60,290 bases of DNA from Moniliella sp. 'wahieum' (taxonomy: Eukaryota): NCBI GenBank assembly GCA_003971905.1, contig RSEE01000084.1:248001-308290 (forward strand). Direction: 5' to 3'. The notes under the pieces were generated by a model. It searched no databases, was not told the DNA's origin, and saw only the letters and a program-made list of their open reading frames with translations. This document shows positions 1 to 40,942 of the stretch, piece by piece. How positions within the stretch are numbered: position 1 is the first letter of the stretch; every line of letters begins with the position of its first letter. The translations under genes were made by a program, and so were the position numbers.

Positions 1-1390
1 AGGAATATAGTAATCGATAACCGAGGATCCATGCACCATGCACGTTGTTGCACGAAGCAGCTTGCATCACCGTCACCATCAGCATCATCAAATTGACCAC
101 TGCAGTGCTGGCCATTCATCATTCGATGAGGCATATCCTGCGGATGACTCTGGGTTTAATGCTACTAGCTGAGCTCGTGCCAACCAAATTAGGAAGTCAA
201 GGGTTTGTCGCCAGTCGGTCAGACCGTCCTCAGGCATCAGGCTAAGGCCTAAGAACCCTTTCGCCCCTTCCATTACTTGTTCCCAAACCGGATGTAATAT
301 GTAACGCGAGTGCTGGATACGAAAAGGAGTCTAAGGTAGGCATGTGAGCAATATCGAGGAACCCCGTCAGTCTCTCCAATGGTGCTCGCAGACTTGAAGC
401 TTGAAGCTTCAACTTGAAGTCTATTTGGAATAGTCGATAGTCCAACGTCCATTAGTATATATGGACCGAAAATCGACGACCACTACTCGGCCCACTTGCT
501 AAGATGACCATGTGACATGTGATTCGTGTGGTGTGTTGTGTGTGACACGGAAGTGATGCATGTGATGTGTGGCAACCGAAGGAGTGATATGTGACAGTGG
601 CTGGTCTGCTAAACGTTACGCGTTACCGCGCGTTAACGTTAAACGCGGTAAACGTTAAAACGAATGATTAATGAATTACTACACTCAATACTCAGTACTC
701 AGTCTGAGTACTCACGTAGTCACTAGTCACCACCATAGTCACTACTGTGCTCTGTCGCGTGTGTGCCACACCTCGTACCTGCCACTACAGTTGGCTTCCT
801 TCCTCTTTCAGCAGTCTGGACCAAAGCCGACAACGCAGCGGCGCCACCAGCCGTACCAGGTTCGTACACGCGATCCACAGTACCCCCTGTGCGCGCTTGG
901 TTGCCCTGTAGTCACTAGGACCACTACTATAGCTCGTCATTAAAATTTAAAGGCGATATAGTCCCTTACAGTATAGCTACTAGAGTTACTCAAGTCTCGC
1001 AGGGAGGCTAAAAAATTACCGTTTCCCAGTACTAGTAGTAGATGTGGGCGTACAGTGCGTTGAGCCCTGTTGAGCCTCCCGGTTGAGCGTTTTCACATGT
1101 AAGGTTAAGCGCGCAGGCATCGAAAACTGTACACATGCATCTCGATAATGCTATAGATATTGGTTACTCGAACCAATCAACAAACGATAAGGGCGCGAGC
1201 GCCCCCAAAGGCCAAGAGGATTGGCCCTTAGTTGAAGGGCTTTAAACTGAAATCCTGTACGCCTTCTTTTTGAAGCGTTAAAACGACTTGGAAGCCTTAC
1301 GCTGTGGCAGCAGCTTATTGAATGATAGTATGACGTGAGTAATGACGTTGCTATATATATATGATCAAGCTGATCAAGATCGCGTCCATT

Positions 1391-1697
1391 TCATTGACAG
1401 AGCTTAAGGCTGTGGGACAGGGGGAACGCTACGTCTAAACCTAACCGTTCACCTTGCGGGGGTTACTTGGAAGCGCCACTAATGTCAAGGAATCAGGGGG
1501 ATCGCCAGGATATCAGGACCCTCCGGTTCTCGCCATCCGGTCCCGTACCCTAGGAAGCGCGTGTGGAGACACGGATGAACGTGGTTGACATCCGAGCGAG
1601 GAACCATTTCCACTGAGACTTCACCAATGCGCAAACAACTTGCCCGCCGTCTCGGTGCCGCAGTATCCTCGCGTCGTCAAAACCAGGGGGAAAAACG
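1391..1697. repeat. Dispersed ~300-bp repeat, copy 1 (probable old LTR/transposon fragment)
   Basis: Collinear similarity to 46135-46450, with shared blocks TCATTGACAGAGCTTAAG, ATCGCCAGGATATCAGGACCCTC, GACACGGATGAACGTGGT, CCGAGCGAGGAAC and CGCGTCGTCAAAACCAGGGG. Confidence 0.85.
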
Positions 1698-4600
1698 ACT
1701 CTTGAGTGCGTCCCTGGTACTTGGATCAAGGTTATATTATTAGTTGACGGTGACGTTGACGTTGAACCTACTTTTAAAGCTCTGTTTTGAAGGGCATCGA
1801 GAGAGTCTTTTATATAAAAGAGAGATACTTGAGATGTGTTCGAGCTCCTATCCCGCGTAAAATGAATGTATGGAAAGTGAATCGACATCACAATACGATG
1901 TCATGCCATGCCTGCGCCTTCGCTCATCGAGCTCATCTTTGTCTGAATTAATATGCATTTTCAGTCAAGACCTCGTCTATCCTCGTCTCTATGCTCTGCT
2001 TCCTCTTCTGCACCCCGTCGTCTGTTGCTTTTCTCGGTCTTCAACGACGCCGTTTGTTTGGTCAGGGTTCTGTACTTTCTCATAGTTATAAGAGCGGGAG
2101 AGTGTAAATCTCAACAATTAGTGAAACCTCTCGCTTTGTGCCACCGTCGGGGCTAAGGTCGCTAAGACGAGGGAGAGACCAATGAGATGAGAGGAAGACA
2201 AATGGAAGAATCCCGTCCTGGTTGCGCTTCCTTTCTCTTCTATACAATTAATATGTTCTCTTCTCTTTTCCCGTTCCCTTGTTCCCCCACACAAGAGTTT
2301 TCAGACGCTATACCTCTCTGAGAGGGCCGATCATTAGTGCACAACGTCCCTTCCCATCTATCCGACCAAGTAAGCCTCTCTTCTGATTCCAGCCAAACCT
2401 CCTTCTCCAGTCAGTGTAGTGCTCTTTTTTCTCCCTTGGTTTTGTTTTCAACAATCCTCTACGCCGCTCCCTGGCCCAAAATCCGTTCTCTGTCATTCAC
2501 AGTGCAGTTATGTCACATATTAGAAAAACACACATATCTCTGATAATGATCCCCCGTCTGAAGCCGACGTGAATCACAGTGGTCAGAGTCACGACCCCAA
2601 TTGATCGAGGTTGGAGAATACAGCTCATCTCGGATCAATCATACGTGGGTGGGAAAAAAACTTCGTATGTGGATGATATGCATTGGGGCATACATGGCAT
2701 ATGACTATTATCGCCGATGGGCCTATAGAGGATTGAGGGAGACGGGTGGGAGGCAAAATACAGGCTCCAGAACCCAACATCATACCCAATTTCAATAGAT
2801 GAAACCAGCCGGAGATGCCAAAGCAGTGGGTATCAGAGAAAATAATCAGGACCCTCCGTTCTCATCATGACGGCCATACATCGCTTAACAAACAGTGATC
2901 AAGTGGGTCTGATCCTGACAATCGAAAACCACCATAGAAGTCCATCGCGGGCGTCCTCTGGTACTCGACGCGCAGCCCGCGCCTTCCTTTTAATTAGACC
3001 TGTGCCTCAGGCTATTCCCATGCCCGATCCAGTCGGCGCACCCACTGCCGCTCCCTCCGTCCTACTTTGTATGTTCTACTCCCTCTAGGGCATAATGTCT
3101 CGATTAGCTGCAGGATGATCACTGACGACCCCCACTACAGCTATTTAAGAACTTTCAACGCAAGAGGGATGATGGGATTGCGTTGCCATTCGTTTTACTC
3201 TGGTTGGAGTGCAATCTTTTTCTGAATGAAGTGCCCCCTTTTTCTGCACGATCCATCGGTCTTTTGCGCCGCACCATAGCAAACATCTGATCCGATTGTT
3301 TTCTTCCCCCCGTAGGGGTCGGAATCTTGATGCAGTGCTGCTTGCGCCCAACCGCATCCTCAAAAGTATACGTTGGTCTTGCTGGGCCACCACAGAGAGC
3401 TACTATGCTATACTAACGGTAGATATATGTACCCCCAAGTAAATGATGCAAGCGTCCCACCCTCAAGTTCTTGACGCGTCCCGTCCATCGTTACTTCTAC
3501 ACCCTCCGCGGGAAGCAGCTCGAGCTCTACGGTGCATAGCCAACTATGGTGCATCCATCATGTATCCCTCTCTCCTATCCGTCTTTTTCTCGGCAGAAAC
3601 TAACATGCCAAAAGTATGTAGGAAAAGACTGTGCGGGTGGACTACTGTTGGGGCTGACAGACGGTACTAACAGAGTATTCGCCTATTTTTCATTGTGTTA
3701 GCAGTGAGTGCAGGATGTGTGGAAGGTGGTTCATGTTTGGGAGCCAGGGCTAGGACAGGCACCGTTTGTGGCTGGTGCAGTTGCACGCAGCTGTGGACTT
3801 ATATCGGCTATTATGATGCCTTGTTTCTACATTTCCTTTTCGCCCCAGAGCCTCACCTGGCCAAGAACGGCTAACAGGAGATGGAGATGGGGAGGAAAAG
3901 GATGTGGATCATATTTATCGAGTGGAAAGAGGGCGGGGTATATATGCCTCGGAGAAGAAGAGATCATGCGAGCTAAATTACGCAGAGAAAGAAAGGGGAG
4001 CATAGGCAAAGGGGGGAAACAGGGTTTAGATTAACAATCAGAGACCAACAGTCAACCCGGTGACTAGAAGGGCGACCATGTGGGTCTGATCCCGACAACC
4101 GCAGGAATCCATATAGAAGTGCGTCAGGTTGGGGGCAGGCTGGGCGCGGTGCTATTTGCTTTTGTCGCGCATCGCATCTTGACCTAAGCGGGTTTTCGAT
4201 TGGGGGGCCTATATGCCCCCATGGACTCGGCGTTACCAAAACGGTCCGGGATCGCAGGCAGTGCGGCATCAGTCCGTTTTGACCTCGTCACCTTCATAAT
4301 TGGGCCCAAGTATGTTGGGCCCAATGCCCCCCACACATGCTGCGCCATATGCAAACGGCAGGCTCACTGGCGAATGTAGCGCTGCCGCCGCTCCATCGAT
4401 TTTGATTCGACGTGATGCGTATCCGTCTCTCTCTCACATGCACGTCCTTGGCTACAGTGGCGCCAAAAGGCCATCGTGCTTGAACAGCCCGGCTTGTCCA
4501 CGGAGTGTTTGATGGTGCAGTGGGCGGCTCTCTCTGCTGTCGTTGCCATTGCCACTGCCATGCCTGTGTATTGGGCCTGGTTCTGGTGTCTGCGTTCAGG

Positions 4601-9855: not shown

Positions 9856-9932
9856 AGGTCCCACTGGGATTCGAACCCAGGTTTCAGGAAATTGATCAAA
9901 TCCTACTTGCTAACCAACTACAATATGGAACC
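9856..9932 (-). tRNA. tRNA-Gln-like gene (probably TTG) with an atypical 11-nt anticodon loop or very short intron
   Basis: Minus strand GGTTCCA-TA-TTGTAGTTGGTTAGCAA-G-TAGGA-TTTGATCAATT-TCCTG-AAAC-CTGGGTTCGAATCCCAG-TGGGACC-T followed by a T run. The body matches eukaryotic tRNA-Gln. Confidence 0.8.
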
Positions 9933-11700: not shown

Positions 11701-12366
11701 GAAGCGCATTTGTCAATCCGTCCACACCGCGGAGACCTCATAATAGCACAGTGGCAAGGGCGTAGTAGGTCGCATATACACTCGAGTCATCGACACTATT
11801 GGCATGTACATCCAAACACAGAACCCCTATTCGCATCCATCTTCCGGTAGTTTCTACTGCCCTCAGCCTCATGCACATGCCCAAGCAAACCCCTTAGCGC
11901 TTACCATCGCGCTTAACCACCATCGGCTCCCACATGCACACGCCCCCCACCGGCGTGCAGTCCTTAGCGATTGCTCCCCGATCATCGATTATCGATTAGC
12001 GCTGGGGCGAGAGGCGCCGAGTTAAGCTTTAAGCTGCTACAGGGCCCGTTGCCGCCGTGCCGCGGAGTGTGTCTGAGTCGGTGCCTGAGTGAGCGCTCAG
12101 GCTGAGCGCTGATCGACTGAGTACTGATCGATGATCGCTGATTTCTGGCAACCCTGTCGATCTTAAAGCACAGAAGGGTCTGGCTAGTTTTGGCTACATA
12201 CGCCGTTCCCAGCAGGCGCCCCTTCTTGCGCCTCGGCCTTACCCCTTGCCTGGCAGTTACAGCTGGCGCTGCCCCCACGTGCTGCGCTGCTGCTGCTGCC
12301 CTCGCCCAGCCGCTTGTCCGCGCCACTGCCACCACCGCTGCCCTGGCCGCCGCCACGCCCAGCCCC

Positions 12367-13763
12367 ATGCCCACCTTCACCGTGCTCGACGCGCCCTCCG
12401 TCGCGCCCCCGGCCTACGCCACCAGCCCCCCCGCCCCACACCCGCACCCGCAATGGCTCCTTCAAATCGCCCTGGGCCTCGGCTGGCGCTCCCCCGGTCT
12501 CGTCGGCCCGCGCGGCCTGCCCACCGTCGCTGCCGCCTCCTCGCCCGATCCCCAGACGCGGCGGACCCAACCCCCTTCCCCGGCGGCGATGCCCTCCCGC
12601 CAGTCGAGGATGCACCTTCCAGCCTCCGCCGTCGGCCACAGTAGCAGCCACCGATCATCTATACCTGGCTCGGCCACGCTGCCAGCCACATCCAGCTTCC
12701 TACCGGCAAGGGCAAGCGCCTCGTTGTTCTCACCGACCCGGTGTTTTCCCACCGCTGGTACGTCCCCAGCATCCAGCCCCCCTCCCCTCCCCCCCTCCAC
12801 ACGCTCAGATGAACTGACCTCGTTTTCTTTTTATCCCCCCCTGCCTCCTAGCTCACCTTTTACTTTCTCGGCCCCGCCCGCTTTACCCGTTGCCCACTAG
12901 TGTTGAGCAGCTTGCTCAGCTTCCCGGTGCCTGGCCTGACGTTCTCGTTATTTCCCACAATCACTATGATCATACCGACGTTGCCACCCTCTCCGCCATC
13001 TTAGCCCAAGCTAACTCGGAACAAGGCCGATCTGTTCCCCACGTCTTTTGTACTCTGGGTACAAAGCGCTGGTTTGCTTCGCTTGGGTTCCCTTCTGATG
13101 GGATTACGGAGCTGGACTGGTGGCAGGCCCGTATTCTCGAACGCGATGATGGTGCTCGTGTCCGTGTGACGGCTGTGCCCGCCCAACACTTTAGCTCTCG
13201 AGGACTCCTGGACCGCAACAAGACCCTATGGGCTGGGTTTACGGTGGAGGTACTGCAGGACGACAAGCCCACGCCAAGGTCTACTTTGCTGGAGATGTAC
13301 GCAGAATCCTCCTTGCTTTACGTTGGTACTGACCCATCCCCCCTTTCCTTCCGACATTTCCTCTTCAGACGGGTTATCGCTCGATTCCCCAAGGATCGAC
13401 CGAGAAGAAGAGATTGCTACACTCCCCACCTGCCCTGCCTTCCGCGAGGTAGGCGAAACTTTGGGTCCGTTCGACTTGAGCATGATCCCAATCGGTGCCT
13501 ATGGCCCGCGTGGCTTTTCTCCCCATCCATATCGGGCCTGGGAGGCAGTCCAGATGCACCAAGAGGTGCGGTCGCGCAGACGATTGGCATCCATTGGGGG
13601 CGTGTGGAAGTTGACCTCTGAGCCCGCGAGCGAACCCAAATTGGTCCTGGCTCAGAGGCCGATAAGGCCGGCCTCGACCCCGACGAGTTTTACCACGTCT
13701 GGCATTGGCCAGACCATTGTCGTTCCCACCGCGTTTGAGCCAACCTGGCGTTCAGGCGTCTGA
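12367..13763 (+). CDS. N-acyl-phosphatidylethanolamine phospholipase D (metallo-beta-lactamase fold, Fmp30-like)
   Basis: WLGHA, LTDPVFS, VISHNHYDHTD (HxHxDH), ELDWWQ, PAQHFSSRGLLDRNKTLWAGF, GPFDLSMIPIGAY, IGIHWG; probable intron ~12757-12900. Confidence 0.9.
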
Positions 13764-16293: not shown

Positions 16294-16744
16294 GGCACAA
16301 CCGTTGATGGAGGTAGTGAGCGGCAACAGCAATCCGCACGTCCCCACCTGGCCCGGCTGCGGATTGCGGGATAGCGTGTTGCACCGAAGGGAGTGGGCAA
16401 GCGGTCCCAGATTTTAGATCACCGATCTCAGATCTCAACGAAAATGCTAACTTGACGCGTGGCATTGAATATTGAACGTTTAACTTTCCCATTGATGGAA
16501 CCTGCCGACGGCTCTTGCGTCCGCCGTTCGAATTCCGCCTCCTCGGGGGCGAGTGGAGAAAGACGGGGTGACGCGTGACGGGTTACCGGTTATGCAGAGG
16601 CCGCACTTGTGTTGTCCACTTATCAATGTCCGCTGCCAGTCAGCATCTCCCCGTGTGACTCGGGTTGCTGCCATATTATTGGCCGAGAGCCGCTCCCCCG
16701 CTCAGGCCCTCAGGCCCCACCGCCAGTCCATCCACTCCGTTACT

Positions 16745-17042
16745 ATGCCCGTCGCACACAGTGCTCCTCCCCACACCACCCCTCCCCCCATGTCGACTAC
16801 GCCAGCACGTGGATGAGTGCGGCGCTCAACACATGGCCCTCGCCTGCGATCCGCGGTCTGTTCCCCTACGAGCAGGTGCCCGGCATGGTTTCCTTCTTGG
16901 CCGGCAAGCCCAACCCGGGTGCCTTTCCCGTGCGCGGCATGTGCGTCGACGTCACCAACCCACACACCGGCGTCCCGGACAAGTTGCGCGTTTCCCCCGA
17001 GGACCTAGAAAGCAGCTTGCAGTACGGCATGTCGGCCGGCTT
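16745..17042 (+). pseudogene. 5' part of a class I/II PLP aminotransferase (Aro8/AADAT-like), interrupted by the copia element
   Basis: PSPAIRGLFPYEQVPGMVSFLAGKPNP..FP and SLQYGMSAG are typical N-terminal Aro8/AADAT motifs. The frame continues as LPSLV at 22100 once the element and one TSD copy are removed. Confidence 0.9.
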
Positions 17043-17202
17043 TGTCGGCCTCGCTACTACCACAGAATGTGAGCACTGAACGTCGTATTTGACTAAGAAG
17101 CTTCTGCGACTGACTCGTCCAGAAGACTGGTGCGAGCTCGGAAGGAATGAAAGCTGACTCACGTGACTCAGGGTCCGCGCGGTCCTAGGACGGATGTCAA
17201 CA
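17043..17202 (-). repeat. 3' LTR (160 bp)
   Basis: Identical to 21937-22096 except T17090 versus G21984; element-strand termini TGTTGAC...CCGACA. Confidence 0.97.
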
Positions 17203-20200
17203 CCCCCGCTGACCGGAGGGCCCAGTCATGTGGACTGGATCCATCTCCTCGACGCGGAGTTGAGCAAGATGGCTTGTCAGGGCGGGACGGCCGAGAGGCT
17301 TGGTGAGGACGTCCGCTGGGTTCCTTTCGCCGGGGATGTGTACAAGTATGGCCTCGCCCGAGTCCACGTGTTGCCGTACATTGTGGTACCGGATCTTCAG
17401 CTCTCGGAGCTTGCCGGTGCTGCCAAATTTGTGGGCGAGATCGACGACAGACTTATTGTCGCAATACCAATGAATGGGTGTACCCTCGCCGATGGCCCCA
17501 AGCTCGATCATGATGTTCTTGACATAGTTGGCGTCAACCAGTCCATCATATCCTGCCGTATATTCGGCGGCGGCGGTACTGGTAACGCTCTTCGGCTGAA
17601 GAATGGATCGCCACGACACCGGCACACCGTACACCATCAGTAGGCATCCAGATGTGGAGCGTGCCTGGATGGGATCTCCCGCCAAGTCGGAATCTGTATA
17701 CAGCGCAATGGCCGGTGCATCTGATGTTGGGGTCAACCTCAGGCCCTTTCCTCGAGTATGGTACAGGTAGCGAAGGAAGTCATCGACTGCTTGATGATGC
17801 TGCTGCGATGGGTCGGCAGCGGCTCTGCTGAGGGCCGTGATAGCGAAGAGGGAGTCAGGCCGGCCCATTCGTGCAGCCCACAGTCCCGATCCGATCTTCC
17901 CCTGATATGCCTTGCGCAAGGCTGGGAGGGATGGGGGTTCAGGGTCGGCACGGGGCGGTATCATCCGTACGGGATGTGGGAGAGTCCGGATCCACGGGGC
18001 TTTGATGTGGTGCTTTGCCACCACTTCCTCGATGAACTTTGGTTGGCTCAGGTACAGCTCCCCACCGATCCGATCGTATTGGCATCCCAGGTGGTAGTGA
18101 AGGGGACCGTTACCACGAACATCAATGTGTGTGTTTATCTCGGCCATAAACTCCTCGTACTTTTGGTGTGACTTGCATGCGAGGAGCAGATCGTCGGTGT
18201 GGACCGCCAGGAGGATCTGCTCACCCGGTGGTGCAGCGCGCACGAACAAGCAGGGCTCGGTCAAGCTTTGCGTGAAGCCGAGCTTGTCACGCAGCAGGTT
18301 CCGGATGTATCGTGCCCAGTTTGCTCCGCTCTGATGTAGCCCGTATAGACTCTTCTTGAGACGCCACACGCGACCACCCGCTTCGGGGAAGTAGGGGGGT
18401 GGGCGGATGTAGACTGCTTCTTCGAGGGGGGCGTTCAGGTACGCTGCATTGACGTCCGCCGAGAAGAGGCCAAACTTATACTTCTCGGCCAGCACGACGA
18501 GGGTCAGGATGGCAGGTGTGCGCACCGATGGTGCGAACGTCTGGCCCCAAGTCTCGGCCGATTGTTGGTGTCCGCCCGCGACAAAGCGCGCGCGGTGGCG
18601 CAGGAACCGGCCCTCGGCGTCCGTCTTTGTGGTGATGCGCCATAGTCCTATGAGGATTTGTGCACCCGGTGGTGGGTACGTAGCCTCGTAGGTGCCGTAT
18701 CGCGCGAGTGTGGCCACCTCGTCGGCCATAGCCTGCTTGACCATGGCAAAGGAGGGGTGAGTCTCGAGACCCTTGAGCGTCTTGGGAGCGAGGGGTACGC
18801 CATCCTTGGTGAGCTGAACCGTGTCCGGGTGGATGGGTGCGCTGAGAGCAGTCATGGGGCGTATTGGAGGTTGAACTGTGTCGGCAAACGGGGGGGCGGA
18901 TGTGTCAGGTAGGGGGCGGGCGATGCCGATCTCTGGTGCGGCGCAGTGGGGCGTGGCGGCTGCAGCACGAGCATGGTAGGTCGTGTCGGTGGGGTCGTCA
19001 GCGATTGGGAGTGTGTGCAGGTCGAGGGAGGTGCGGGTGGTGCGCTGGCGGAGGGGGTAGCGGCGCGGAGGGGGGGTGGTGGTGGGAGCGGGTGTCTGGG
19101 GTGTGGCGGCGGTTCGGGGCATGGGTGCTGCCGCGGCTGGCGGAGTAGGGTTAGCGTCTTTTTCACTGTCGATTTTAATTTGAGGTGATTTGGAGATGTC
19201 GGGTGGGAAGTGGTCGGGGTGGAGATGGGGGTAGATGGCGTTGCCCCATTTGTACGGTTTCGACCAGCGGTAGGTGAAGGTACCCAGGGATGGTTGGTAT
19301 GTGGCGAAGAGCCATCCCTTTGATCCGCGCTGATGGTGGTATCCTACCAGCATACCTTCCTCTGCCCGCGCGCTGAGCTTGTGCTCGCGGCGTGACTCGG
19401 GCAGATGGAGGTATGCAACGCGGCCAAAGGGTTGCATCGGTAACGAGTATGCGTGGCCTTTGTATCGCTCAAATCGCGATTTGTTGTCTTCCCCGGATGT
19501 TTTGAGTGGCATTTGGTTTTGGGTGAAGCACGCAGCGTGGAGGCTGTGTTCCCACCAGTCCGACGTCGGAAGACCTGTACCCAAGAGCAACTGCCTTGCA
19601 CGAGTCGTTATGGTTCGGATGGCACGCTCAGCCACACCGTTGCTAGCACTCTGCCCCGGGATTGTCCGTTCTGACGTGATGCCTTGCTCGTCCAGAAAAG
19701 GTTGCAGTGCGCTTGTCAATTCGGGGGCGTTGTCCGTGCGCAAAGTCCGCAGCAGTCTGTCCGGGCCGTAGCGTTGCTCCCGCAATATGAGGTTCCGCAG
19801 TTCCTTCGTTGCAGCGCCCTTTGTCGGGATCGCTGTGGTGAAGACGTACCGCGTGAAGTCATCAACGGCGACGAGGGCGTATCCGTGCCCCATGCCGGTT
19901 ACCCGGGGGAGGTCTACTACGTCGACGTGGAGGACCTCGAAAGGTCTTTTGGATCGGAGGCGGTCCCGGCTCGGATGGGGCGATGCTGTCGCTAGTGCCA
20001 CCGCGCATGTTGGGCAATCCCACTCTGAACGACAGAGGGAGATATGCTTGGCTGTGACGCGGAGGCCTGCGGTTTCCGATCGTGTAAGCCAGGGGAGGAG
20101 GTCGATGGCTGCGTGGTTCCAGCGTTTGTGGGCTTTAGAGACGTGGTCCAGGGCCAGGGATGCTGCGAGGGAGTTTGGGGTTGAGGGTGGGTCGGCCGGT

Positions 20201-20637
20201 TTGATCGGTTTGGTCGCCATGGCCCGCAGGGGTGTGGGTGGCGTTCGCGGGTTGTGTAAGATCGTGAATTGATAGTCACTGCCGGTTACTTTTCGTAGGG
20301 TGGATCCTGGGTTACCAAGCCAGATACCCTTCTGGTGTGGGGCGAAGTATGATGCGATTCCGGTGTTCGACAGGTGTGCTACACTGACGAGATTTCGGCT
20401 GAAACGGGGCATGTATAGGCTGTTGGGGAGTTTTATCTCCATTTGGTGTCCTCCTAAGCATCGGATACGGATTGTGGCCGTGCCTCGTCCTTCCGCCTTT
20501 ACATGTGTCCCGTTAGCAACCTCTATCTCGTCGTCGCAAGGGGTCATGGATGTGAAGACGGATTTGTCTTTCCAAATGGATGGGAATGCCCCACTGTCAT
20601 ATAATGCCCGGATGATTCGCATTTCGCCCCCGAGTTC
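17197..20637 (-). CDS. pol: Copia Pol polyprotein (protease, integrase, reverse transcriptase, RNase H)
   Basis: YDSGA protease; HKRWNH...CPTC integrase Zn finger; LHVD / RTDNAPE / NGVAERAIRT DDE; ADVNAAYLNA, LKKSLYGLHQSG, VHTDD RT; YTDSD, CDNKS, NPADVLTK RNase H. Open from the gag TAG to a TGA inside the 3' LTR. Confidence 0.97.
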   Translation of the reverse strand, partial: ELGGEMRIIRALYDSGAFPSIWKDKSVFTSMTPCDDEIEVANGTHVKAEGRGTATIRIRCLGGHQMEIKLPNSLYMPRFSRNLVSVAHLSNTGIASYFAPHQKGIWLGNPGSTLRKVTGSDYQFTILHNPRTPPTPLRAMATKPIKPADPPSTPNSLAASLALDHVSKAHKRWNHAAIDLLPWLTRSETAGLRVTAKHISLCRSEWDCPTCAVALATASPHPSRDRLRSKRPFEVLHVDVVDLPRVTGMGHGYALVAVDDFTRYVFTTAIPTKGAATKELRNLILREQRYGPDRLLRTLRTDNAPELTSALQPFLDEQGITSERTIPGQSASNGVAERAIRTITTRARQLLLGTGLPTSDWWEHSLHAACFTQNQMPLKTSGEDNKSRFERYKGHAYSLPMQPFGRVAYLHLPESRREHKLSARAEEGMLVGYHHQRGSKGWLFATYQPSLGTFTYRWSKPYKWGNAIYPHLHPDHFPPDISKSPQIKIDSEKDANPTPPAAAAPMPRTAATPQTPAPTTTPPPRRYPLRQRTTRTSLDLHTLPIADDPTDTTYHARAAAATPHCAAPEIGIARPLPDTSAPPFADTVQPPIRPMTALSAPIHPDTVQLTKDGVPLAPKTLKGLETHPSFAMVKQAMADEVATLARYGTYEATYPPPGAQILIGLWRITTKTDAEGRFLRHRARFVAGGHQQSAETWGQTFAPSVRTPAILTLVVLAEKYKFGLFSADVNAAYLNAPLEEAVYIRPPPYFPEAGGRVWRLKKSLYGLHQSGANWARYIRNLLRDKLGFTQSLTEPCLFVRAAPPGEQILLAVHTDDLLLACKSHQKYEEFMAEINTHIDVRGNGPLHYHLGCQYDRIGGELYLSQPKFIEEVVAKHHIKAPWIRTLPHPVRMIPPRADPEPPSLPALRKAYQGKIGSGLWAARMGRPDSLFAITALSRAAADPSQQHHQAVDDFLRYLYHTRGKGLRLTPTSDAPAIALYTDSDLAGDPIQARSTSGCLLMVYGVPVSWRSILQPKSVTSTAAAEYTAGYDGLVDANYVKNIMIELGAIGEGTPIHWYCDNKSVVDLAHKFGSTGKLRELKIRYHNVRQHVDSGEAILVHIPGERNPADVLTKPLGRPALTSHLAQLRVEEMDPVHMTGPSGQRGC

Positions 20638-21882
20638 CTAGTAGTCAGCTGTGCCCGCATCAACGTCAATCACTTCAGACTCGGGAGAGCTCGCTCTCTG
20701 AGCGACGTGAGCGTTGGCTCGGGGGTTGCGCGGAGGGACAACAGGTTTATTAGACGTCGCGCTGCGCCAGGGTTGGTTGGTGCGGTCTTGCCCCTTGGTC
20801 TTTGTGTCCGCGAGGTTGTCGTCGCCGGCTTTGCCCCCGCTGGAGTTTTTTCCCCCGCTGGTGGGTCGTCCCCCGCTGTCGGGTCGAGTCCAAGGCGTTC
20901 CTCCGTTGACCGGCTTGCCTCCGTTTCTCTTCCTTTCTCCACCGGGATACGTGGCGGCTGGTATGTCCATCACGGCCTGCCGTAACTTGTCTAGACTCGA
21001 GCGCTCTTCACGCTGGCGAATGCTCATGTCGCGTAAGCCGAGTAGGATCCCAGTGCGTTCCTGCTCTTCCGTAAGTGGGATGCCCGCTCGCGTCAGGCTT
21101 GCACTGATCTCTTCCATGTAGTCGAGGTAGTCTCGACCCGATCGGTTTCCTTGGTCGGCCGAAAAGTAGCGAATGAGTAGAGGCCCTCTGTTTGCGGTAG
21201 GCGTATATCCATACCGCTGACGCAGCATGTTCAGCGTGTCCTGGGTGCATGATATTTCGTGGTGGGTGCGGATCGTCCGGAAGAGGGTTGACGGCATGGC
21301 TTCCCTAAGAAGGTTGTGCAAGCGTCTGTCGAGGTCCTCGGTGAAGTAGCGGGAGCTGCGACCATTCTGGACGACGTCGCTTGCGTGGGGGTGGGCATCT
21401 GTTATCGCGAAGAGAAATTCGTCTTCCCAAGCGCTGTAGGCGGACGGGTCTTTGTTCAGATCAGGCCACTTGATATTCTTGGTGGGAGACTCGCGTAGTG
21501 ATCTGTAAAGGTCGTACTCGGGTCGCGAGGCTGCGCCTGTAGGTGCCCCCAAAGTTGCGTTGGGTTGAGTTTCCATTTGGTGGATGTTTTGCACCACAAA
21601 ATTCGTAGCCCGTCGAACCCAGTTTGTCGTGATAGACGTAGGTTCGTCCTTCCATCCAAGCCACTCGGCTCTGTCGTGTATAGCTCTGTTGATCTTCTCT
21701 TTAACGACATCGATGTCGTTCGTCTTCTTGAACCACAGGTGCGCTTCGGCGCAAAGCATCATGAGTTCCTCGTTGTCGGTGCCAATCGGTGGCGGATCGC
21801 GACCGGTTGGTGTCCAGTAATCGCGCTTGTTCACCATTGTGGTGTCGCTGACCGAGAGATCGGTGTTAGCGTTGGCGCCCAT
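20638..21882 (-). CDS. gag: Copia Gag (414 aa from ATG 21882)
   Basis: ORF starts 55 nt inside the 5' LTR boundary; capsid-like helical region (YSAWEDEF...LRQRYG...ILLGL) and a basic Gly/Pro-rich tail; ends in a TAG in frame with pol. Confidence 0.85.
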   Translation of the reverse strand: MGANANTDLSVSDTTMVNKRDYWTPTGRDPPPIGTDNEELMMLCAEAHLWFKKTNDIDVVKEKINRAIHDRAEWLGWKDEPTSITTNWVRRATNFVVQNIHQMETQPNATLGAPTGAASRPEYDLYRSLRESPTKNIKWPDLNKDPSAYSAWEDEFLFAITDAHPHASDVVQNGRSSRYFTEDLDRRLHNLLREAMPSTLFRTIRTHHEISCTQDTLNMLRQRYGYTPTANRGPLLIRYFSADQGNRSGRDYLDYMEEISASLTRAGIPLTEEQERTGILLGLRDMSIRQREERSSLDKLRQAVMDIPAATYPGGERKRNGGKPVNGGTPWTRPDSGGRPTSGGKNSSGGKAGDDNLADTKTKGQDRTNQPWRSATSNKPVVPPRNPRANAHVAQRASSPESEVIDVDAGTADY

Positions 21883-21936
21883 GGTTGTGGGTGTAGTTTT
21901 GGCCAGCTCAGGGATGAGCAGATAAGGATGTAACTC

Positions 21937-22096
21937 TGTCGGCCTCGCTACTACCACAGAATGTGAGCACTGAACGTCGTATTGGACTAAGAAGCTTCTG
22001 CGACTGACTCGTCCAGAAGACTGGTGCGAGCTCGGAAGGAATGAAAGCTGACTCACGTGACTCAGGGTCCGCGCGGTCCTAGGACGGATGTCAACA
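21937..22096 (-). repeat. 5' LTR (160 bp)
   Basis: Direct repeat of 17043-17202, followed on the + strand by the TSD GGCTT. Confidence 0.97.
22049..22064. promoter_or_regulatory. Tandem Gcn4/AP-1 consensus sites overlapping a CACGTG E-box in the LTR (also at 17155-17170)
   Basis: TGACTCACGTGACTCA contains two perfect TGACTCA sites; a third TGACTC lies upstream in the LTR. Confidence 0.5.
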
Positions 22097-23308
22097 GGCT
22101 TGCCTTCGCTCGTCAAAACCCTGCATGGATACCAGAAGAAACTCCATGCCAAGCCCGACTTTGACCCGCACAACCCTGGCGTCCACACACCTTGGGCCAC
22201 CATGACAGGCAATGGTTCCCAAGACTTGATTTGCAAGGCGATGACTGTCCTCACGATCCGGGCGATACGCTGCTCGTGGAAGGCCCTACGTTCCCGTATG
22301 TGCTTTCCCTGTATCAGTGTACCCGCAGCTAATGTGTCTATCTTCAGTGAGGCTACAGGCGCCGCTGCACTGTTGGGTAACCAGTTGTATAGCGTCCCTA
22401 CTGATGCCCGAGGTCTGGAGCCCCGCGCGCTGCGCACCACGTTGGAGCAGTGGAACAGTCACCCCAAGTCGAAAGAGATGCGCTACCCCAAGGTGCTCTA
22501 CACCATTCCTACTGGCGGCAATCCCAGTGGTGCCACGGCGGACGAGGAGCGTAGGCGGGAGATCTTGTCCATTACCCGCGAGTTTGGACTGCTCCTTTTG
22601 GAGGACGATCCGTACTATTTCCTCTCCTTTGACGGCTTGGGGCAAGACCCGTCCAGCCGCCCGCGCCCGAAGAGTTACCTTGCCCTTGAACAAGAACAGG
22701 TCACGACCTGGGGGGATGGGCGCGTGCTGCGCTTTGACTCCTTTAGTAAGATCATGGCTGCAGGCATGCGCATCGGCGTCGCTACCGGCCCTGCACCTTT
22801 GATCAAGGCGATGGAGCTCGTTACAGGCACCTACCAACTCCAGCCGTCGTACACGGCGCAGGCCGTTGTCCAAACCGTCCTCCGGCACTGGGGATTCGAC
22901 ACCTTCCTTGTTCATTGCGACAAGGTTGCCCACTTTTATCTCGAGCGGCGCAACTTTGTCGAGGCGGCGTTGGAGAAGGTGCTGGGCAGTGGTGGCGATG
23001 GAAAGCAAGTGTCTGTGGCCACTTGGGTTGTACCCTCGGCTGGTATGTTCTACTTCCTTAAACTGCGTCTGCCCCCTACCCCTGCCAGCAAGGTTGGCGA
23101 CTCCAAAACTTTGATTGAAAAAGTGGCTCGCGATAAGGGTGTCTTGGCCGTCCCAGGCTACGCATTCACCCCGGGCGTGGAGGAGCCGAGCGCACATGTG
23201 CGCATCTCCTTTTCCATTGTGCCCCTCGACCTGGTGGAGAAGGGCTTGCAACGGCTGCGCGAGTCGGTGCTCGAGACCTGGGCCGCAGCCGGCCTGGAGC
23301 TGGCATGA
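22097..23308 (+). pseudogene. 3' part of the Aro8/AADAT-like PLP aminotransferase; intron 22296-22347
   Basis: TGNGSQDLI, DPGDTLLVEGPTFP, PKVLYTIPTGGNPSG, LLEDDPYYFL, RFDSFSKIMAAGMRIG (PLP lysine), PSAGMF, VRISFS. Confidence 0.92.
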
Positions 23309-30242: not shown

Positions 30243-31135
30243 TCATATCCGTTTCGCCACCTGGATCGCTGCTTTGCACCCGTACCCTACGATTGCAGAG
30301 AGGAGCGCATGATGCGGTGCCTGCTGTGCATCATTCTCCACCGCCGTATCGAGGTGGCCTAGCTCGTCATCCGGAATTCAGTGATGACATCCGACAAGAG
30401 CAGAAGCAGGATGTTCCTCTTTTCTTGGGACTCCGGTGTCCTCCCCAACTGCGGTGGAAGCGTCGGAGGCAGGTGGACGAGCCTCGACGACGCGCTCGGC
30501 AATCGGGTCGGTTTTGACCCCGGTGATATGCCGCAGATGAACAAGTTGGCTGGGCGAAGCGGCGCCAGGTCAATTACGGGACACAACACGCTGGAGCTAA
30601 CGCAGGACAGGCACATACTCATCGTAATGTTCCCCAATCACAGTCTCCACTGCCTCGGTACAGGCCATCGCCGCTTTCTTCCCCAGCACCGCCGTAACGG
30701 CGCCGAGGACACTGCCTGCCACACCCCAAATGGGCAAAAGAACAGAAGGGGAGGCGCCATGTTGGTCGAGCAGCTTTTGAGCCACATACAAATGCTTCTT
30801 CTCCCTCCCACATGTCGAGCATCAACGCTTTGGTCCGATTGTCCCCCAACAGAGCAAACACATTCGCTTGCGCTTCGTAGATCGTGTTGGCTGCCAACTC
30901 GCCGGCATGGTCCACACGCAGCATCCCCTCGAGCCTTGCACGGTCAGCGGGCGAGAGGCTGGTGGGTGTCCCCTGGGTCCCGGCCGCTTGCTGCTGCGGA
31001 GAGACGTAGAAGGGAAGCAAGTGGGGGGGCATGGGCGCTGGTGCTGGTGCTGGTGCTATGGCATCGCACCGCCTGCATGCGCAGGATGCGCATCGGCGTG
31101 CGCAGCCTCCCAAACGCCAGCATGGTGGGCGTCAT
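30243..31135 (-). CDS. COQ7: 5-demethoxyubiquinone hydroxylase
   Basis: [68 protein letters not shown] di-iron motifs. Confidence 0.93.
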
Positions 31136-31456
31136 GTCCAATGGCGGCCTGGGTCGATGTGGTTGGAAGCACGCCTGGCTCCCAGCAACTGGCTCAGCTG
31201 CACCAATCTGACCTGATCGATCGACTCGGTGAGGAACAGGCGGCGGCGGTCACCGGCCATGTCCAGGCATCATGCATCATGGGAGCCGGGTGGGATCGAT
31301 GGGACGGAACTGAAGGTCACGTGAGCGTGCCACGTAACATGCTCACATCGGCGGTGAGCGGCTCAGCTGAGTCGAGGCTTACTCTTCGATTCGGCAAGCT
31401 GGAAGCCCGCCCGTCTGTCTCCCTTTTGCTTCCACCCTGTCGCACGAGCCAAGAGG

Positions 31457-33851
31457 ATGACCAGTACCACCCAGCTTTCGGGCCCGCCCTTGGCTTCGGG
31501 CGCCGCAATCGACTTGTCGTCTGCTGCGGTGGGGGGCAGAATCCAAATCGACGGCCGCAGTTTCCTCGATGCCGCTGGCCGAGTCTTGCTCCTCCATGGC
31601 ATGAATGTGAGTGGAGCAAGCAAGTTGTATGTCTTCCTGCTCCGTTCCCCTACATGGTCGCCACTGACCATAAACCGTGCAAAGGCCGACGAACCCCAAC
31701 GGCCTCACACATCTTACAGATGCATGGGAGACTGACGACCGGAAGGTTACCTTTTATGGCCGTCCATTTCCTCTAGAAGAGGCTCCACGGCGCCTGGGCC
31801 AGCTCAAGGCATGGGGTTACCCGCTCGTCGTCTCATGGTAACATGGGAGAGCATTTCTCATGCTGGCCCGCGGATTGAGGACCTGGACATGGAGTACATT
31901 GCCTATCTGAAGGAGCTCATAACCCTCATTGGCTCCATGGGCATGAAGGCTTTCATCTGTGTCATCAAGATGTGTGGAGCCGATTCACAGGAGGCAGCGG
32001 TGCGCCAGGGTGGACCTCGAGGCGGCAGGAATGGATCGAGCGCTTTCAAGGCCACCGGTGCAGCCTACATCCACTGCCTTGACGATGCTGACCCCCAAGG
32101 AGCCAAGCGGTCCGTTCCTCTGGCCCTGGGGTACCAGAAACTGGGGGCGGCGACGATGGCCACCCTGTTTTGGGGGGCGAAGTGTTTGCACCCAACTTGC
32201 ATTCTCGCCTTCTTCCCAAGGAGATGGAAGGATCCCAGTTTAGGACCAAGGACTCGCAGCAGATCCAGCGCTTTCTGCAGACGGCGTTTATCGATGCGTA
32301 TGGGTACCTGGCCGACCAGCTTGCTGGACTGGATGGTTTCTTGGGGTTCGATCTGTTCAATGAACCCCATCGCGGTCTGATTGGTCTGGGGAGCTTCCAC
32401 AAGTGGAACTACGATACGGACCTACACATTGGTCATTTCCCCAATTTGCTCCAGAGCTTGGCTTGGCTGATGGCAAGGCGCAAAAAGTCCCGTTCTATGT
32501 CAAGACCTGGCCTTTCCCCACGCGCAAGACGCACGACAGTCTCCTCGACCCAGATGGCAAGTCCATTTGGAAGGACGGAGTTTGTCCGTGGAAGTCGCAT
32601 GGTGTGTGGAAGTGGGACGAGGAGAGCCAGCAGGCGCAAGTTGCATCGGAACATTACTTTTCCCAGGACCACGCGGCAAGGAGCCCAAGCCTGTGGAGTG
32701 GTACAAGGACTTTTATCTACCCTTTATCCAGCGTTTCTCGGCCCGACTCCAAAAACAGAATAAGGATCTGTTCATCATGCTCGAGCCCATCCCAAACGAG
32801 TTTTTCCCGCCCTGGCCCCCGAAGTATGTGGCCGAATCCAAGCTGGTCAAGCCCAAGAGGAGAGCAGCGCCACCGCCTGATCCTACCAAGCAAACGTATG
32901 CTGTTCCCCGTCTTGGAGGGAGAACATCCTCCCAATTTGGTCTATGCCCCACATTTCTACGATCTTAATGTCCTGTTTGGCAAGGTTTGGTCTTTCATGT
33001 CGTCAACGTGCAAGGCCTCGCGAGAGGCATGTTTATCCTCAATGCGCTCTACTTTGGCGAAGGAGGGCTGCGGAGAAACTACATTAAGCAATTGACAGCG
33101 CAGGTTTCGTTCGGGCGCCAGTCGGGGAATGTGCCAGTCCTGATTGGGGAGATTGGCCTGCCGTACGACATTAACGGCGCTCACGCGTATCGCGCTGGAG
33201 ATTACCGCAAACATGTCGAGCTTGCGGATGCGATGCTTAATGCGCTCGAAAGAACTGGGCCTCGTTCACCTGGTGGAACTTTAACCCGGATGCTGTTTCT
33301 GCCCATGGCGATGGATGGAACAAGGAGGACTTTAGCGTGATCACTGCTGATGAGCCTCTCGCGACCGGCCAACACCAAAGGTGCGACCAATGACCGGTAC
33401 CGTGGTGGAAGAATCTTGAAGCCCTCATCCGTCCCTATGCCGCTAAAGTTGCAGGCGTTCCGCTTTCGACCAACTGGGATCGGCATCATGGCGAGTTCCA
33501 TCTGAGTTGGATGAACCGTCGTTCCAGCTCGCTTGTCACAGAGATCTTCTTTCCCAAGTATCTGTTTGAAGGGAAGAATGTGCTGATCGAGCTGAGCGAC
33601 GGCAGTTGGCGCCTTGACACTGAGAAGGAGACTTGTATGACCCACGCCCAGAAGGCGCTGGGATACGAACACGATCTTCACATTACCCTTTTGGAACGGT
33701 CGATGCCCTGCGCCGGTGTTGGTTGCGCCACATTTGGCCTATCGTGGCCAACCCTCGCACGTGGCTCGTCCTCTTTTCCCTCGCATTTATCAACGCTGTT
33801 TTCTTCTTCCTCTTGAACAAGAGGAGCAAAAGTGGTTCATGGACGCGTTGA
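31457..33851 (+). CDS. GH5 endoglycoceramidase-related protein (steryl/glucosylceramide beta-glucosidase, Egh1/EGCrP-like)
   Basis: GRVLLLHGMNVSGASKL, GRPFPLEEA, VTWE..SHAGP, DVWSRFTGGSGAP, GFDLFNEP (acid/base), YAPHFYD, PVLIGEIGLPYD (nucleophile), GDGWNKEDFS; C-terminal TM segment. Confidence 0.9.
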
Positions 33852-36531: not shown

Positions 36532-37065
36532 AGTGGGGGATATCCAGTCGCATCTCGCATTAACTCCCTTCCCCCCTTCTCGCGTAGGGAAGGTAGTTTT
36601 GTCTTGTTTCTCTGGTCCTTGTTCTTTTTCCTAGCCCACTTCATCCAATTACCTTCCACTTGGGTTTTGGACCGCTATCCGTCAAGGACGGAACGGCGAG
36701 GTTCTCGTAGAGGCTAACCCTACTGTGCATATGCACCTTCACAGTACCGAAGCCGGGGAGGCCTCAGACATCAGCCGACGATGGAGATGGTATGGGGTTC
36801 AGATGGTTAACGGGATATGGCCCTATACGATCCTGAGCTGAGGGCGATAAATACTACTAATATAGAAAACCCCAAACGGGCTGGTGGGAAAGCTCAATGT
36901 GTTAGTGTTGGTAGGATTGAGATCTACAATGGGAAAGCGCGCTACAGAGGAAAGTAAATTATTAAGGAAATGGTTTGGAAACCATCATTGTAGGATGTAC
37001 CAAGAGGGATAGAACAGGAAGGTGAATGGTCGGAAAATAAACATAGGAAAGGAGAGCGAACGCAG

Positions 37066-38484
37066 TCACAACTGAGACTGGACAGGAAGCAAGCGCTGAA
37101 CCGCGCCACGGAGACGGGGCGCTTCCTTCATGGCCTGGATAAAGAGCTCGAGAGCGCGAGCGATCGTGGGGTTCTGCTCGTCGACCCGGCATGGTGAGGT
37201 GGGGGGTACCCGCCTCTTCCGCCGCAATCCGGTCCAAGGCGAGCTGGGCAAGCGTACTGTGCCCAGATTCTTGACTGGCGAGGTGGTAGGCCAGGCCTTT
37301 GGCTTCCTCAAAGGAGCGCTTGCAGGGAAGAGCATGAACGGCGATACTCATGTAGCTCGCATCCTCCTCCCTCTCCACCCCAACTTGGCGTGTGAGTGCC
37401 AAATGGAGCTGGCTGCGCACGTGGCCCAGTTGAGCACCCATACAGATCCATGGTTTGGGAGCAGGCAGATGCGCTCCCTGCTTCTCCATAAACTCCATCG
37501 CCTCTGTCATTGACATGCCCAGAGAGGAGGGGCCAGTGTGGTAGCCCACTTGCTCGCCGTCTTCCTTTCGGAGCGATCCGTGGCAAATGTGCTTAGCACC
37601 CTTGCCGGTGACTTGGATGTGATGCTGGAGGTTCTGCGGCTTGCCGTAGGCCAGGAGGCAGCGGGGAAGGGAGCACATGTACAACGTGTTTTTGACCGTC
37701 GCAACCACACCCGCCTCTTGAGAACAAGAATGCTTCCGTGGCATTGCTGGACATGTTCCTGAAGCTCTTTGGACGTGGCAAACGTGGCCAAAAGCCCGGA
37801 TCGCTCCTCTTGATGAGCGGCCTGCAAGACTGCCTGGGTTTCAGGCGAAAGAAGAGGCAGGCACTGCTCCAGCACCACAATCTCAGGACATTGCGGAGTA
37901 AAGACACGCATCCACTCTAGCTTGCACCACGGTGCGCCACATGCGTACGGACGCACTAATGGGTCCCCCGGGCGTGCCACCACGTCGCTTCGAATACTGC
38001 GGTCCCGGCCCTTTTTGCTCTTAGGTTCATCCTTCTTCTTTTTCTTGCTGGATTTGGTGGTCTGGGAACTAGGATTGCCAAGCACCAGGGCACGGGTCGT
38101 CGGCGATGAACGCTTGGGCTGACGGTTCAGGCGAGACTTGTCCAAACCTGCTCGGTTGCGGGCTTTGGGGCAGGGACGAGAAGGAATAGGGGGAGGGGAA
38201 GCCTCATCTGAAGAAACGGTGAGGCCATCCGAAGTGCTCATAGGATCTTGATTTTGAACGGAAGAAGGGCTGGGAAGTGTGGAACCAGTAACAGCGGACA
38301 ATGAAGCGGAGGAACTCGACTCCTGGCGCCCTTGCCATGCAGCGTAGGAGGCAGGTGGCATCGCGAATGGTTGAACCACAGGAGGGATGCTGCGAGAATG
38401 GACAGGTGGAAGGCGTTGCGTCGACAAGTTGACAAGGATACGGGCTGCTTCCACCACCTCAGAGGAATGGCCCTGGTGGCTCAT
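37066..38484 (-). CDS. Putative C2H2-like zinc-finger transcription factor
   Basis: Ser/Pro-rich N-terminus, basic NLS KKKKK, RPYACGAPWC...FATSKELQEHVQQCH and YMCSLPRC...YGKPQNLQHHIQ finger-like motifs. Confidence 0.55.
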
Positions 38485-40942
38485 CGGCTCGGCTGTAAAA
38501 ATGGGAAGTGTTAGTCGTATCTACGCTCCAGGAATGAAGAGAGGGCATGACGAACCGAAGTGGTGCGGCATCGTTCAGTGGTGAAGGTGTTGGGGGGTGA
38601 AGGTGAAGATGGGAGGGAAGGTGAAGGTGGGGGGGAAGGTGAAGGGGAAGGCGATGGTCGGGGGTATTTATGGCCGGTGCTGCTGGCGGCTTTGGCTGTC
38701 GACGGGACGGACTGGTCTACTGTCAAGTCAAGCCTGGCATTAAGATCGAAGGCAAATAAGAGTGGGAAGGGGGACGGGGCAATGTCTCCCGCCTGGTCTA
38801 CTCTGTGAAACATTCTGAGACCTGCCTTAGGTCTCAGGCAGAGAGGGGGTGGGGGGACGGGGGCAGTGGCTCCCGTGGTGGTCCTCCCTACCGTCAGTTT
38901 GCCGACGCATATACAGGGCTGGTGCGGATCTGTAACTTCAGCGTCTGTACTAATACCATTATTAGTTGCCCGCACAAGGGAGAGGATGCTTGAGTTGCGT
39001 GCATTTTTGTTGGTCACATAAAAATAGTGTGGCCGTCTGACATGGTGGTGGGGGGCGGAATAGACAGGTCGAATGAGTCTACAGTGAGGCCTGAGGACGG
39101 AGGACGCAGTGGGGGAGGCCGATTCGCCTGTGTGGGAGACCAACCACCGACCACGGATCATCGATCATCGATCATCGATCTTTTTTGATCGTCTAACCCC
39201 CTGCGCCTCGCTTGTGTCCGGCCGACTCGTTTCCCCCGCATGTCTCAGATGCACGCCACTCCCCCCGCGGCCTGGCGGCGGCAGTGAGCAAGTGCCCCCG
39301 TGCCTGCTTTTGTTATGCATGATGCATGACGTGGTGCAGCACATGCATAACCCCGGCAACCTCGTCCATCCTGTTGAGGCGTGTGTAAGCCATGCGAGCA
39401 ATAGTCGAAATACTCGATCATCTTCAATGCCGGGCGAGGTTTGGAGTATATGCCAGGGTTAGCGTGGTTGCACATGTGAGCCTGTGAGCTTTCGGATGAA
39501 CGCTGAACGTTCAGTTCAACCCTGAACGTACGCTGAACCATTTCTACTCCAATATGTTGAAGGGGGTAGTACTATTAGGGTTCCCTCATACGGCCCTCGG
39601 TTGATCTCAACAACGGTGACGCGGTGACGCTCGCCTATTAGCCGGGCGGAAGCGCTCCGCTCGCAGGCTGCGCATCACCATATTATGTGCCGTCCTTATC
39701 TCCAACAGTAGCTGCGTCTCGCAGCCTGGCACCTTAGTATATAATTATCCTCTCGACACTCGTCCCTCTCGACTTCTTTCAGATCTCACTCCGCTGCGTC
39801 GGTATCGTAGAATAGCGGTGTCGTACATGCTTTCTGGCATCCTTTTGTGGTCGTTATTACGCGTTGCGCGTTATACAAACCTATTTACACCGTACCATGA
39901 CATTGCAGCATGCCACACAGTCCAGCACAGCGAACCAAAAAAAGAAACCCCACAAGGATCCTCGATCCAACTGCCACGGTGAAATGATGGTGCAGATTCG
40001 CTGAGCGCTGAGGCCTGAGGGCGCGGATGCACGCCACACATGGCAACGTGTCTTCATGATACCAACATACCCAAAACGAGTCACAGAAGAAATCGCAAAT
40101 AGCCACAGTGTAACCTTAGCTCGGTGTCAGACAAATGATACATGATGCCGTGCATGCCATGGAGGACACGCATGGACAAAAGTCACTGGTTGCCATGTGA
40201 GAGCTAATAAGTACTAAGTCCGCAAATGCACCTGCGTCCTTCACGCGTCAATCAATATATTCAATCCAATAATAAAACGTGCAAACAGACCCCAATCTTC
40301 TCAAAAGCTAGAAGGAAGTGAGGCCTGAAGCAAAAGGGGCAGGGGAGTCGTTATGCCCGTAAAAGCAAAAAAAAACAGGTCGTCGGTCGACTGTCATCAT
40401 TCTCAAAAGGCGTTACTATACGCGTTATGCACGTAAAACGTTAAAGTGGCATGCACAGCAAAAAAGAGAAAAGGTCGTCGATCTCATCAGTAAAAAGAAA
40501 GGTAATCATTGGGTGCCTAGCAGACTCAAGTCAGCGACGGTCCGACGGTCCGGTACTGACTTGTTGGGCTCATGATCGCTAATGTTGTCGTCAATGATGG
40601 ATGGTCATGAAGAGTTGTCGATCACGCGTTGGTGCAAGTTAGTGGGCCTCTTCTCCCCCCTGGCCGTCACGGCCATCAGGACCTTTGGAGCACGTATTGT
40701 CCTTCTCCTTGTCCTGTTCCACCGGACTTCCCGCACACACTTGGTCCAGAATCTGGTGCAACCGTACCCGATTGGCATATGCCCTTGTAAGCCTCTTGCG
40801 CATCTTTTGATCCAGCCCACTATGCCCAGTGATCAGGATCTGCATTATGAAGGCTTCGATCGTCATGGGTGGTGGAAGTTGCACAGCAGCTGACCCATCA
40901 TGTTCCAGCGCATCCCCGAAGCACCACAGATCAACCCAAGGA

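Follow-up and report, generated by a model that had tools for sequence, protein, structure and literature searches.

A stretch of 60,290 nt from Moniliella sp. 'wahieum' (GenBank assembly GCA_003971905.1, contig RSEE01000084.1, positions 248,001 to 308,290 of the forward strand), here called the window and numbered from its first letter, holds a complete Ty1/copia retrotransposon in which gag and pol share one reading frame and are parted by a single in-frame TAG. The element is 5,054 bp long and lies on the minus strand (22096..17043), and the evidence base for the layout of its stop is this one copy. We conclude that the UAG at the end of gag is most likely native, an ancestry that we infer from where the stop lies, and we tentatively propose, at a confidence somewhat short of an even chance, that this terminator is bypassed at low frequency by UAG readthrough to give a Gag-Pol fusion. 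The gag-stop-pol layout as such is rare and has already been described; no basidiomycete copia element with a UAG at the gag-pol junction turned up in our full-text literature searching.

Read on the minus strand, gag opens at the ATG at 21882 and runs for 414 codons (20641..21882) to the TAG at 20640..20638, which forms codon 415 and is followed by a G. Pol continues in the same frame for 1,146 codons, and together with its TGA (17199..17197) it occupies 17197..20637, the TGA lying 4-6 nt inside the 3′ long terminal repeat (LTR). Apart from the TAG there is no internal stop across 4,686 nt, and open frames of 1,146 and 414 codons in DNA of 57-60% GC, carrying a protease, an integrase and a reverse transcriptase recognized by Pfam, are far beyond chance. 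The junction was re-read letter by letter (...GCT GAC TAC TAG GAA CTC GGG GGC GAA ATG CGA ATC ATC CGG GCA TTA TAT GAC AGT GGG) and agrees in sequence and position with the first-pass annotation, whose description of a 414-residue Gag in frame with Pol and of one TAG in 4,686 nt was likewise borne out by the frame scan. The same annotation had placed the TAG at the Gag/protease junction, 14 codons before the catalytic Asp of a YDSGA motif; this Asp is indeed the 14th codon past the TAG (YDSGA at 20587-20601), and frame, Pfam and BLASTP evidence agree on the placement. What we find is therefore the layout of a gag/pol boundary, with a single in-frame stop before the protease and the same frame on either side.

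According to Pfam, Pol carries its minus-strand domains in the copia order of protease, integrase and reverse transcriptase: a retropepsin-like protease (Pol_BBD, pol residues 13-93, 20359..20601), the integrase core (rve, residues 230-329, 19651..19950) and the reverse transcriptase (RVT_2, residues 655-879, 18001..18675), together with a retroviral SH3-like domain (SH3_retrovirus) at residues 401-443. Near its C-terminus it reads ADVLTK, a motif of the ADxxTK type (named in PMC5445492). When the polyprotein was compared by BLASTP with 19 distant library proteins, homology began at residue 427-429 in 10 of them, and three of these 10 (P0016, P0082 and P0065) have their own start only 6-16 residues before the homology. 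The protease homology starts 12 codons past the TAG, at polyprotein residue 427, and since the Pfam match starts at pol residue 13, the TAG must sit in a linker immediately before the protease. On the other side of the stop, Gag matched no Pfam family even at an E-value of 10 and holds no CCHC knuckle; a language-model feature search led to TYA of Ty1 (0.90) and to copia-type gag (Retrotran_gag_2, 0.87-0.88). A single-sequence AlphaFold2 model of Gag, of low confidence with a predicted local distance difference test score of 39, has helices to about residue 305 and beyond that no helix of at least 4 residues, only one of 3 residues, the tail there being rich in Gly, Lys, Arg and Pro.

Assignment to Ty1/copia (Pseudoviridae) follows from the LTR ends, a 5-bp target-site duplication, the copia domain order and RVT_2. 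The 5′ LTR (21937..22096, 160 bp, TGTTGA...CGACA) is a direct repeat of the 3′ LTR (17043..17202, 160 bp), both on the minus strand, and the pair, with ends of the TG..CA type, has one mismatch in 160 bp. The target-site duplication reads GGCTT on the plus strand upstream of the 5′ LTR (22097..22101) and recurs as an identical 5-mer at 17038..17042. The element splits a host gene for an aminotransferase of the Aro8/KAT-II type, whose two parts lie on the plus strand at 16579-17042 and 22102-23308. The right flank (P0166) aligns with residues 142-423 of kynurenine/alpha-aminoadipate aminotransferase and Aro8 chains at an E-value of 1.8e-50, and also matches Pfam Aminotran_1_2; the left flank of 154 codons matches residues 1-85 of the same family weakly (best E-value 0.014), and all 8 of its matches at E-values up to 1 belong to that family. 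Removing the element and one copy of the duplication in silico yields a single frame of 556 codons. Because the element lies inside a host coding region, its insertion should be recent, and the LTR mismatch of 1/160, the 5-bp duplication and the split gene together mark the copy as young and as the product of real transposition.

In the reading that we favor, the family would be a recently active Ty1/copia lineage of a basidiomycete-like fungus in which the TAG terminates gag. Most ribosomes would stop at the UAG and make Gag, and a few would pass it and make a Gag-Pol fusion, which would release protease, integrase and reverse transcriptase/RNase H, the rate of bypass setting the Gag:Pol ratio. 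The likeliest means of bypass would be translational readthrough, with a near-cognate tRNA decoding the UAG. Readthrough is plausible, although no signal found here supports it, and of the corresponding first-pass proposal one half stands, namely the intact-looking copia element with its single UAG at the Gag/protease boundary, whereas the stimulatory signal was not recovered by folding or by a pseudoknot scan. For reassignment of TAG in the host there is no evidence, TAG ending 5 of the 22 long stop-to-stop frames in the window, beyond which nothing further was examined. Weighing against this reading are the number of nonsense changes to be expected in the copy, the RNA around the junction, the outcome of the searches for other copies and for reads, and an assay on the element Tca2, and we take these together with the rival explanations that they bear on.

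The family may normally have a single open reading frame and this copy may be dead, its stop having arisen by a nonsense mutation after insertion, by an error of reverse transcription, or in a defective RNA mobilized in trans, an account that we regard as rather unlikely. Under a model in which transitions were weighted twofold and 3.35% of substitutions in the coding sequence make a stop, the LTR divergence of 1/160 translates into about 14.6 substitutions over the 4,686 nt, some 0.49 of them nonsense changes, figures whose error is very wide. That such a copy would take a nonsense mutation at some place in its coding region is thus not unlikely, and the first-pass argument that near-identical LTRs speak against a random one is weak, about 0.5 being expected. 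The dead-copy account also gains from the library matches, since most of those that align across the boundary, at about 30% identity, are continuous there and none shows a stop. The location of the stop is another matter: the nonsense-capable weight amounts to 1.0% for codons 403-426, 3.4% for codons 390-440 and 5.7% for codons 365-465, and with only 1-3% of the nonsense-capable sites in the gag/protease linker, a native gag terminator is favored. To this extent the first-pass view that chance is a poor explanation holds (1.0-3.4% by position); what favors a native terminator, by a likelihood of roughly 30- to 100-fold, is where the stop lies rather than how young the copy is. Further points against a dead copy are the 1,560 codons with no other stop or frameshift and the insertion in a host gene, which argues for very little time since the element arrived.

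The RNA at the junction offers little to readthrough. With dinucleotide shuffles as controls, the 121 nt from the stop folded at -25.6 kcal/mol vs. -31.4 for the shuffles (z +1.57), the 60-, 72- and 103-nt folds gave z-scores of +0.60, +1.25 and +0.75, and a 181-nt fold centered on the stop gave -0.02; across these folds of 60-181 nt of a single sequence, no structure better than the shuffles was found. When H-type pseudoknots that begin 4-13 nt past the stop were enumerated in a crude way, the best reached -8.4 kcal/mol, a value that 51 of 300 shuffles matched as well, and the junction hit no recoding element of Rfam at E-values up to 10. The hairpin or pseudoknot that the first-pass annotation had suggested 3′ of the TAG therefore failed to emerge, with z between -0.02 and +1.57. 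For the stimulator pairing that it proposed, GGG..AAUGC with GCAUUCCC, the complementarity is present, yet the minimum free energy folds skip it and do no better than shuffles. There is also a perfect complementarity of 8 nt between CCCCCGAG (20725-20718) and CUCGGGGG (20634-20627), which flank the final 26 codons of gag and the stop; this long-range 8-bp pairing is used in the 181-nt minimum free energy fold, itself at the level of the shuffles. In yeast, a G after the stop and a C before it are not known to favor readthrough. The hexamer that follows the stop, GAACUC, matches none of the named readthrough hexamers, and the CAR-YYA consensus, as quoted in PMC2194720, does not occur there, its place being taken by GAA CUC. 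Since no strong local RNA stimulator was detected, a signal, if any, would have to be distant or of a non-canonical kind, the conclusion also reached for Tca2 (PMC2194720).

The want of a stimulator also speaks for a programmed stop that is passed without readthrough, be it by reinitiation at the AUG at 20622, by a weak internal promoter from which an RNA of pol alone is made, or by splicing of a short in-frame intron whose last two bases are the AG of the TAG; we consider this whole class improbable. The first in-frame ATG of pol (20620..20622, minus strand) is the sixth codon past the TAG, 15 nt downstream of it, and has a purine at -3, which makes it a possible restart codon. No UGGGA-type motif was seen on reading the 120 nt upstream, which counts against reinitiation, and a fold upstream of and overlapping the stop did no better than shuffles (z +0.75). 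For splicing, 28 in-frame GT..AG candidates span the stop, the best of them a candidate mini-intron of 36 nt (20638..20673, minus strand, GTGATT...CTGAC TAC TAG) whose end coincides with that of the stop, which it would remove. Its donor is weak, however, a full GTRNGT donor is missing from all 28, and fungal introns are usually longer than 36 nt. Any free Pol would moreover require a separate route into particles. Tca2 cuts both ways, for PMC2194720 reports a minor promoter at its junction and discusses splicing of the stop codon, but it also has Pol following the promoter in the LTR, not the one at the junction. A wider conjecture, that the copia elements of this fungus bypass a UAG gag terminator by means other than classical structure-stimulated readthrough (a very short in-frame intron that takes its AG from the stop, reinitiation coupled to termination at the AUG 15 nt on, or a trans factor of the host or the element), is in our view a long shot.

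Other copies of the element could speak to the stop directly. Among the best 150 of 40,437 library proteins, below which gag-only relatives would score, P0002 is the only close relative, with 61-64% identity over about 980 residues; it is 1,004 aa long and aligns from polyprotein residue 584, that is, it starts after the protease. The other matches among these 150 are about 26-36% identical and of generic copia type. Pol is otherwise intact, and its family is conserved, as P0002 shows (61-64%). Self-BLAST of the window brought up the LTR pair but no second copy; word-indexed protein searches with the junction (residues 200-640), with gag and with protease residues 1-175 gave no match, and scans of metagenome, viral and genome contigs for related loci came back empty. 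Of three listed sequencing runs one, a food metagenome, contains the element, to the extent of 0.18 of its words, and none of those listed is an RNA run containing it. This run, X1, supplies four near-identical fragments of low depth (17108-17570, 17579-17888, 19575-19767 and 20030-20282) that agree with the element at 1,212 of 1,219 bases, with 7 differences, and leave 20283-22101, including the TAG, uncovered. A sense codon in the true element, turned into TAG by faulty assembly or sequencing, would suit fragments that stop at 20282, short of the TAG, but we hold it to be highly improbable: assembly errors seldom take the form of a substitution that leaves the frame intact, the 4,686 nt are free of frameshifts, and the four fragments, though of low depth, come from another sample and agree at 1,212 of 1,219 bases. 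X1 also contains, at roughly tenfold higher depth, patches of a contig of 5,089 bp that carries a diverged relative.

Precedents for gag-stop-pol, namely Tca2, the Tj1/Tosmo/Tcry1 group and murine leukemia virus (MLV), were counted in favor of UAG readthrough. The closest known case is Tca2 (pCal) of Candida albicans, a copia element of gag-UGA-pol layout with a purine-rich spacer of 8 nt and a predicted pseudoknot (PMC2194720; PMC7175516). It resembles the present element in its superfamily, in having one frame and a single stop, and in that Pol would have to come from the full-length RNA via some bypass. The likeness noted here is one of layout. Tca2 combines UGA with the spacer and the predicted pseudoknot, whereas the present element has UAG and no structure that stands out, and its host is an ascomycete yeast, unlike the basidiomycete-like fungus here. 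Readthrough in S. cerevisiae stayed at background with a 300-nt portion of the Tca2 junction, and although the junction has a weak promoter, Pol nevertheless follows the LTR promoter, so that the bypass has been termed non-canonical (PMC2194720).

MLV reads through a UAG followed by G between gag and pol, making Gag-Pol at a few per cent (PMC2194720), and needs both a spacer and a pseudoknot to do so. Moloney MLV shares with the present element the UAG and subsequent G, in frame and just upstream of the protease; it differs in the spacer and pseudoknot that it needs, to which no comparable structure or Rfam match corresponds here, and in being a retrovirus, not a member of Pseudoviridae. In the fission-yeast Ty3/gypsy elements Tj1, Tosmo1-3 and Tcry1 the junction GAA-TGA-CT is strictly conserved, and Tj1 is reported to need its stop in order to transpose (10.1101/2022.12.06.519325). 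These too are LTR retrotransposons of fungi in which an in-frame stop lies where Gag and Pol meet, but they are gypsy elements with UGA in a context that favors readthrough, while TAC-TAG-GA in the present element fits no known favoring rule. Other members of the copia superfamily meet the same need for excess Gag from one RNA in different ways: Drosophila copia and the plant elements EVD and BARE by splicing (PMC5580714), and Ty1 by a +1 frameshift (PMC2194720). They have a single open reading frame with a spliced gag RNA, or two frames, in place of the one frame and stop described here.

The ends of the element and the rest of the window provided some further observations. A putative primer-binding site directly 3′ of the 5′ LTR (21919..21936, minus strand) was placed by position only, and the stretch that adjoins the LTR (GAGTTACATCC...) is not of the usual type complementary to a tRNA 3′ end. 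The complement of 21919-21936 contains U-GUA-A, which we take to resemble an anticodon loop with the Tyr anticodon GUA; a tRNA gene scan of the window found no tRNA matching the primer site, a tRNA-Tyr gene included. That scan found a single tRNA gene, a tRNA-Ile with anticodon GAU (9856-9932, minus strand). A candidate polypurine tract, AGCGGGGG (17203..17210, minus strand), likewise placed by position, adjoins the 3′ LTR within the pol coding sequence, and this end of the element is very compact (17197-17210), the TGA of pol falling in the opening 6 nt of the 3′ LTR. Elsewhere in the window, long frames on the same strand overlap in different phases at 12142-13621 (plus), 30363-31776 (plus) and 36962-38520 (minus), one of the pairs carrying Lactamase_B_2; such pairs could stem from host genes that contain introns or in which the assembly is off by one base. 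The GC content is 48-49% at positions 1-4000 and 55-63% in the rest of the window.

How gag-stop-pol copia elements make Pol is unsolved even for Tca2, the best-studied case (PMC2194720). A compact, recently transposed element of 5 kb with a UAG and no evident stimulator would provide a second, independent system in which to ask how Pol synthesis gets past the stop. If the bypass of the present element proved not to be readthrough, this would also bear on how Tca2 passes its own stop. For genome annotation, elements of gag-stop-pol layout should not be scored as pseudogenes on account of their internal stop.

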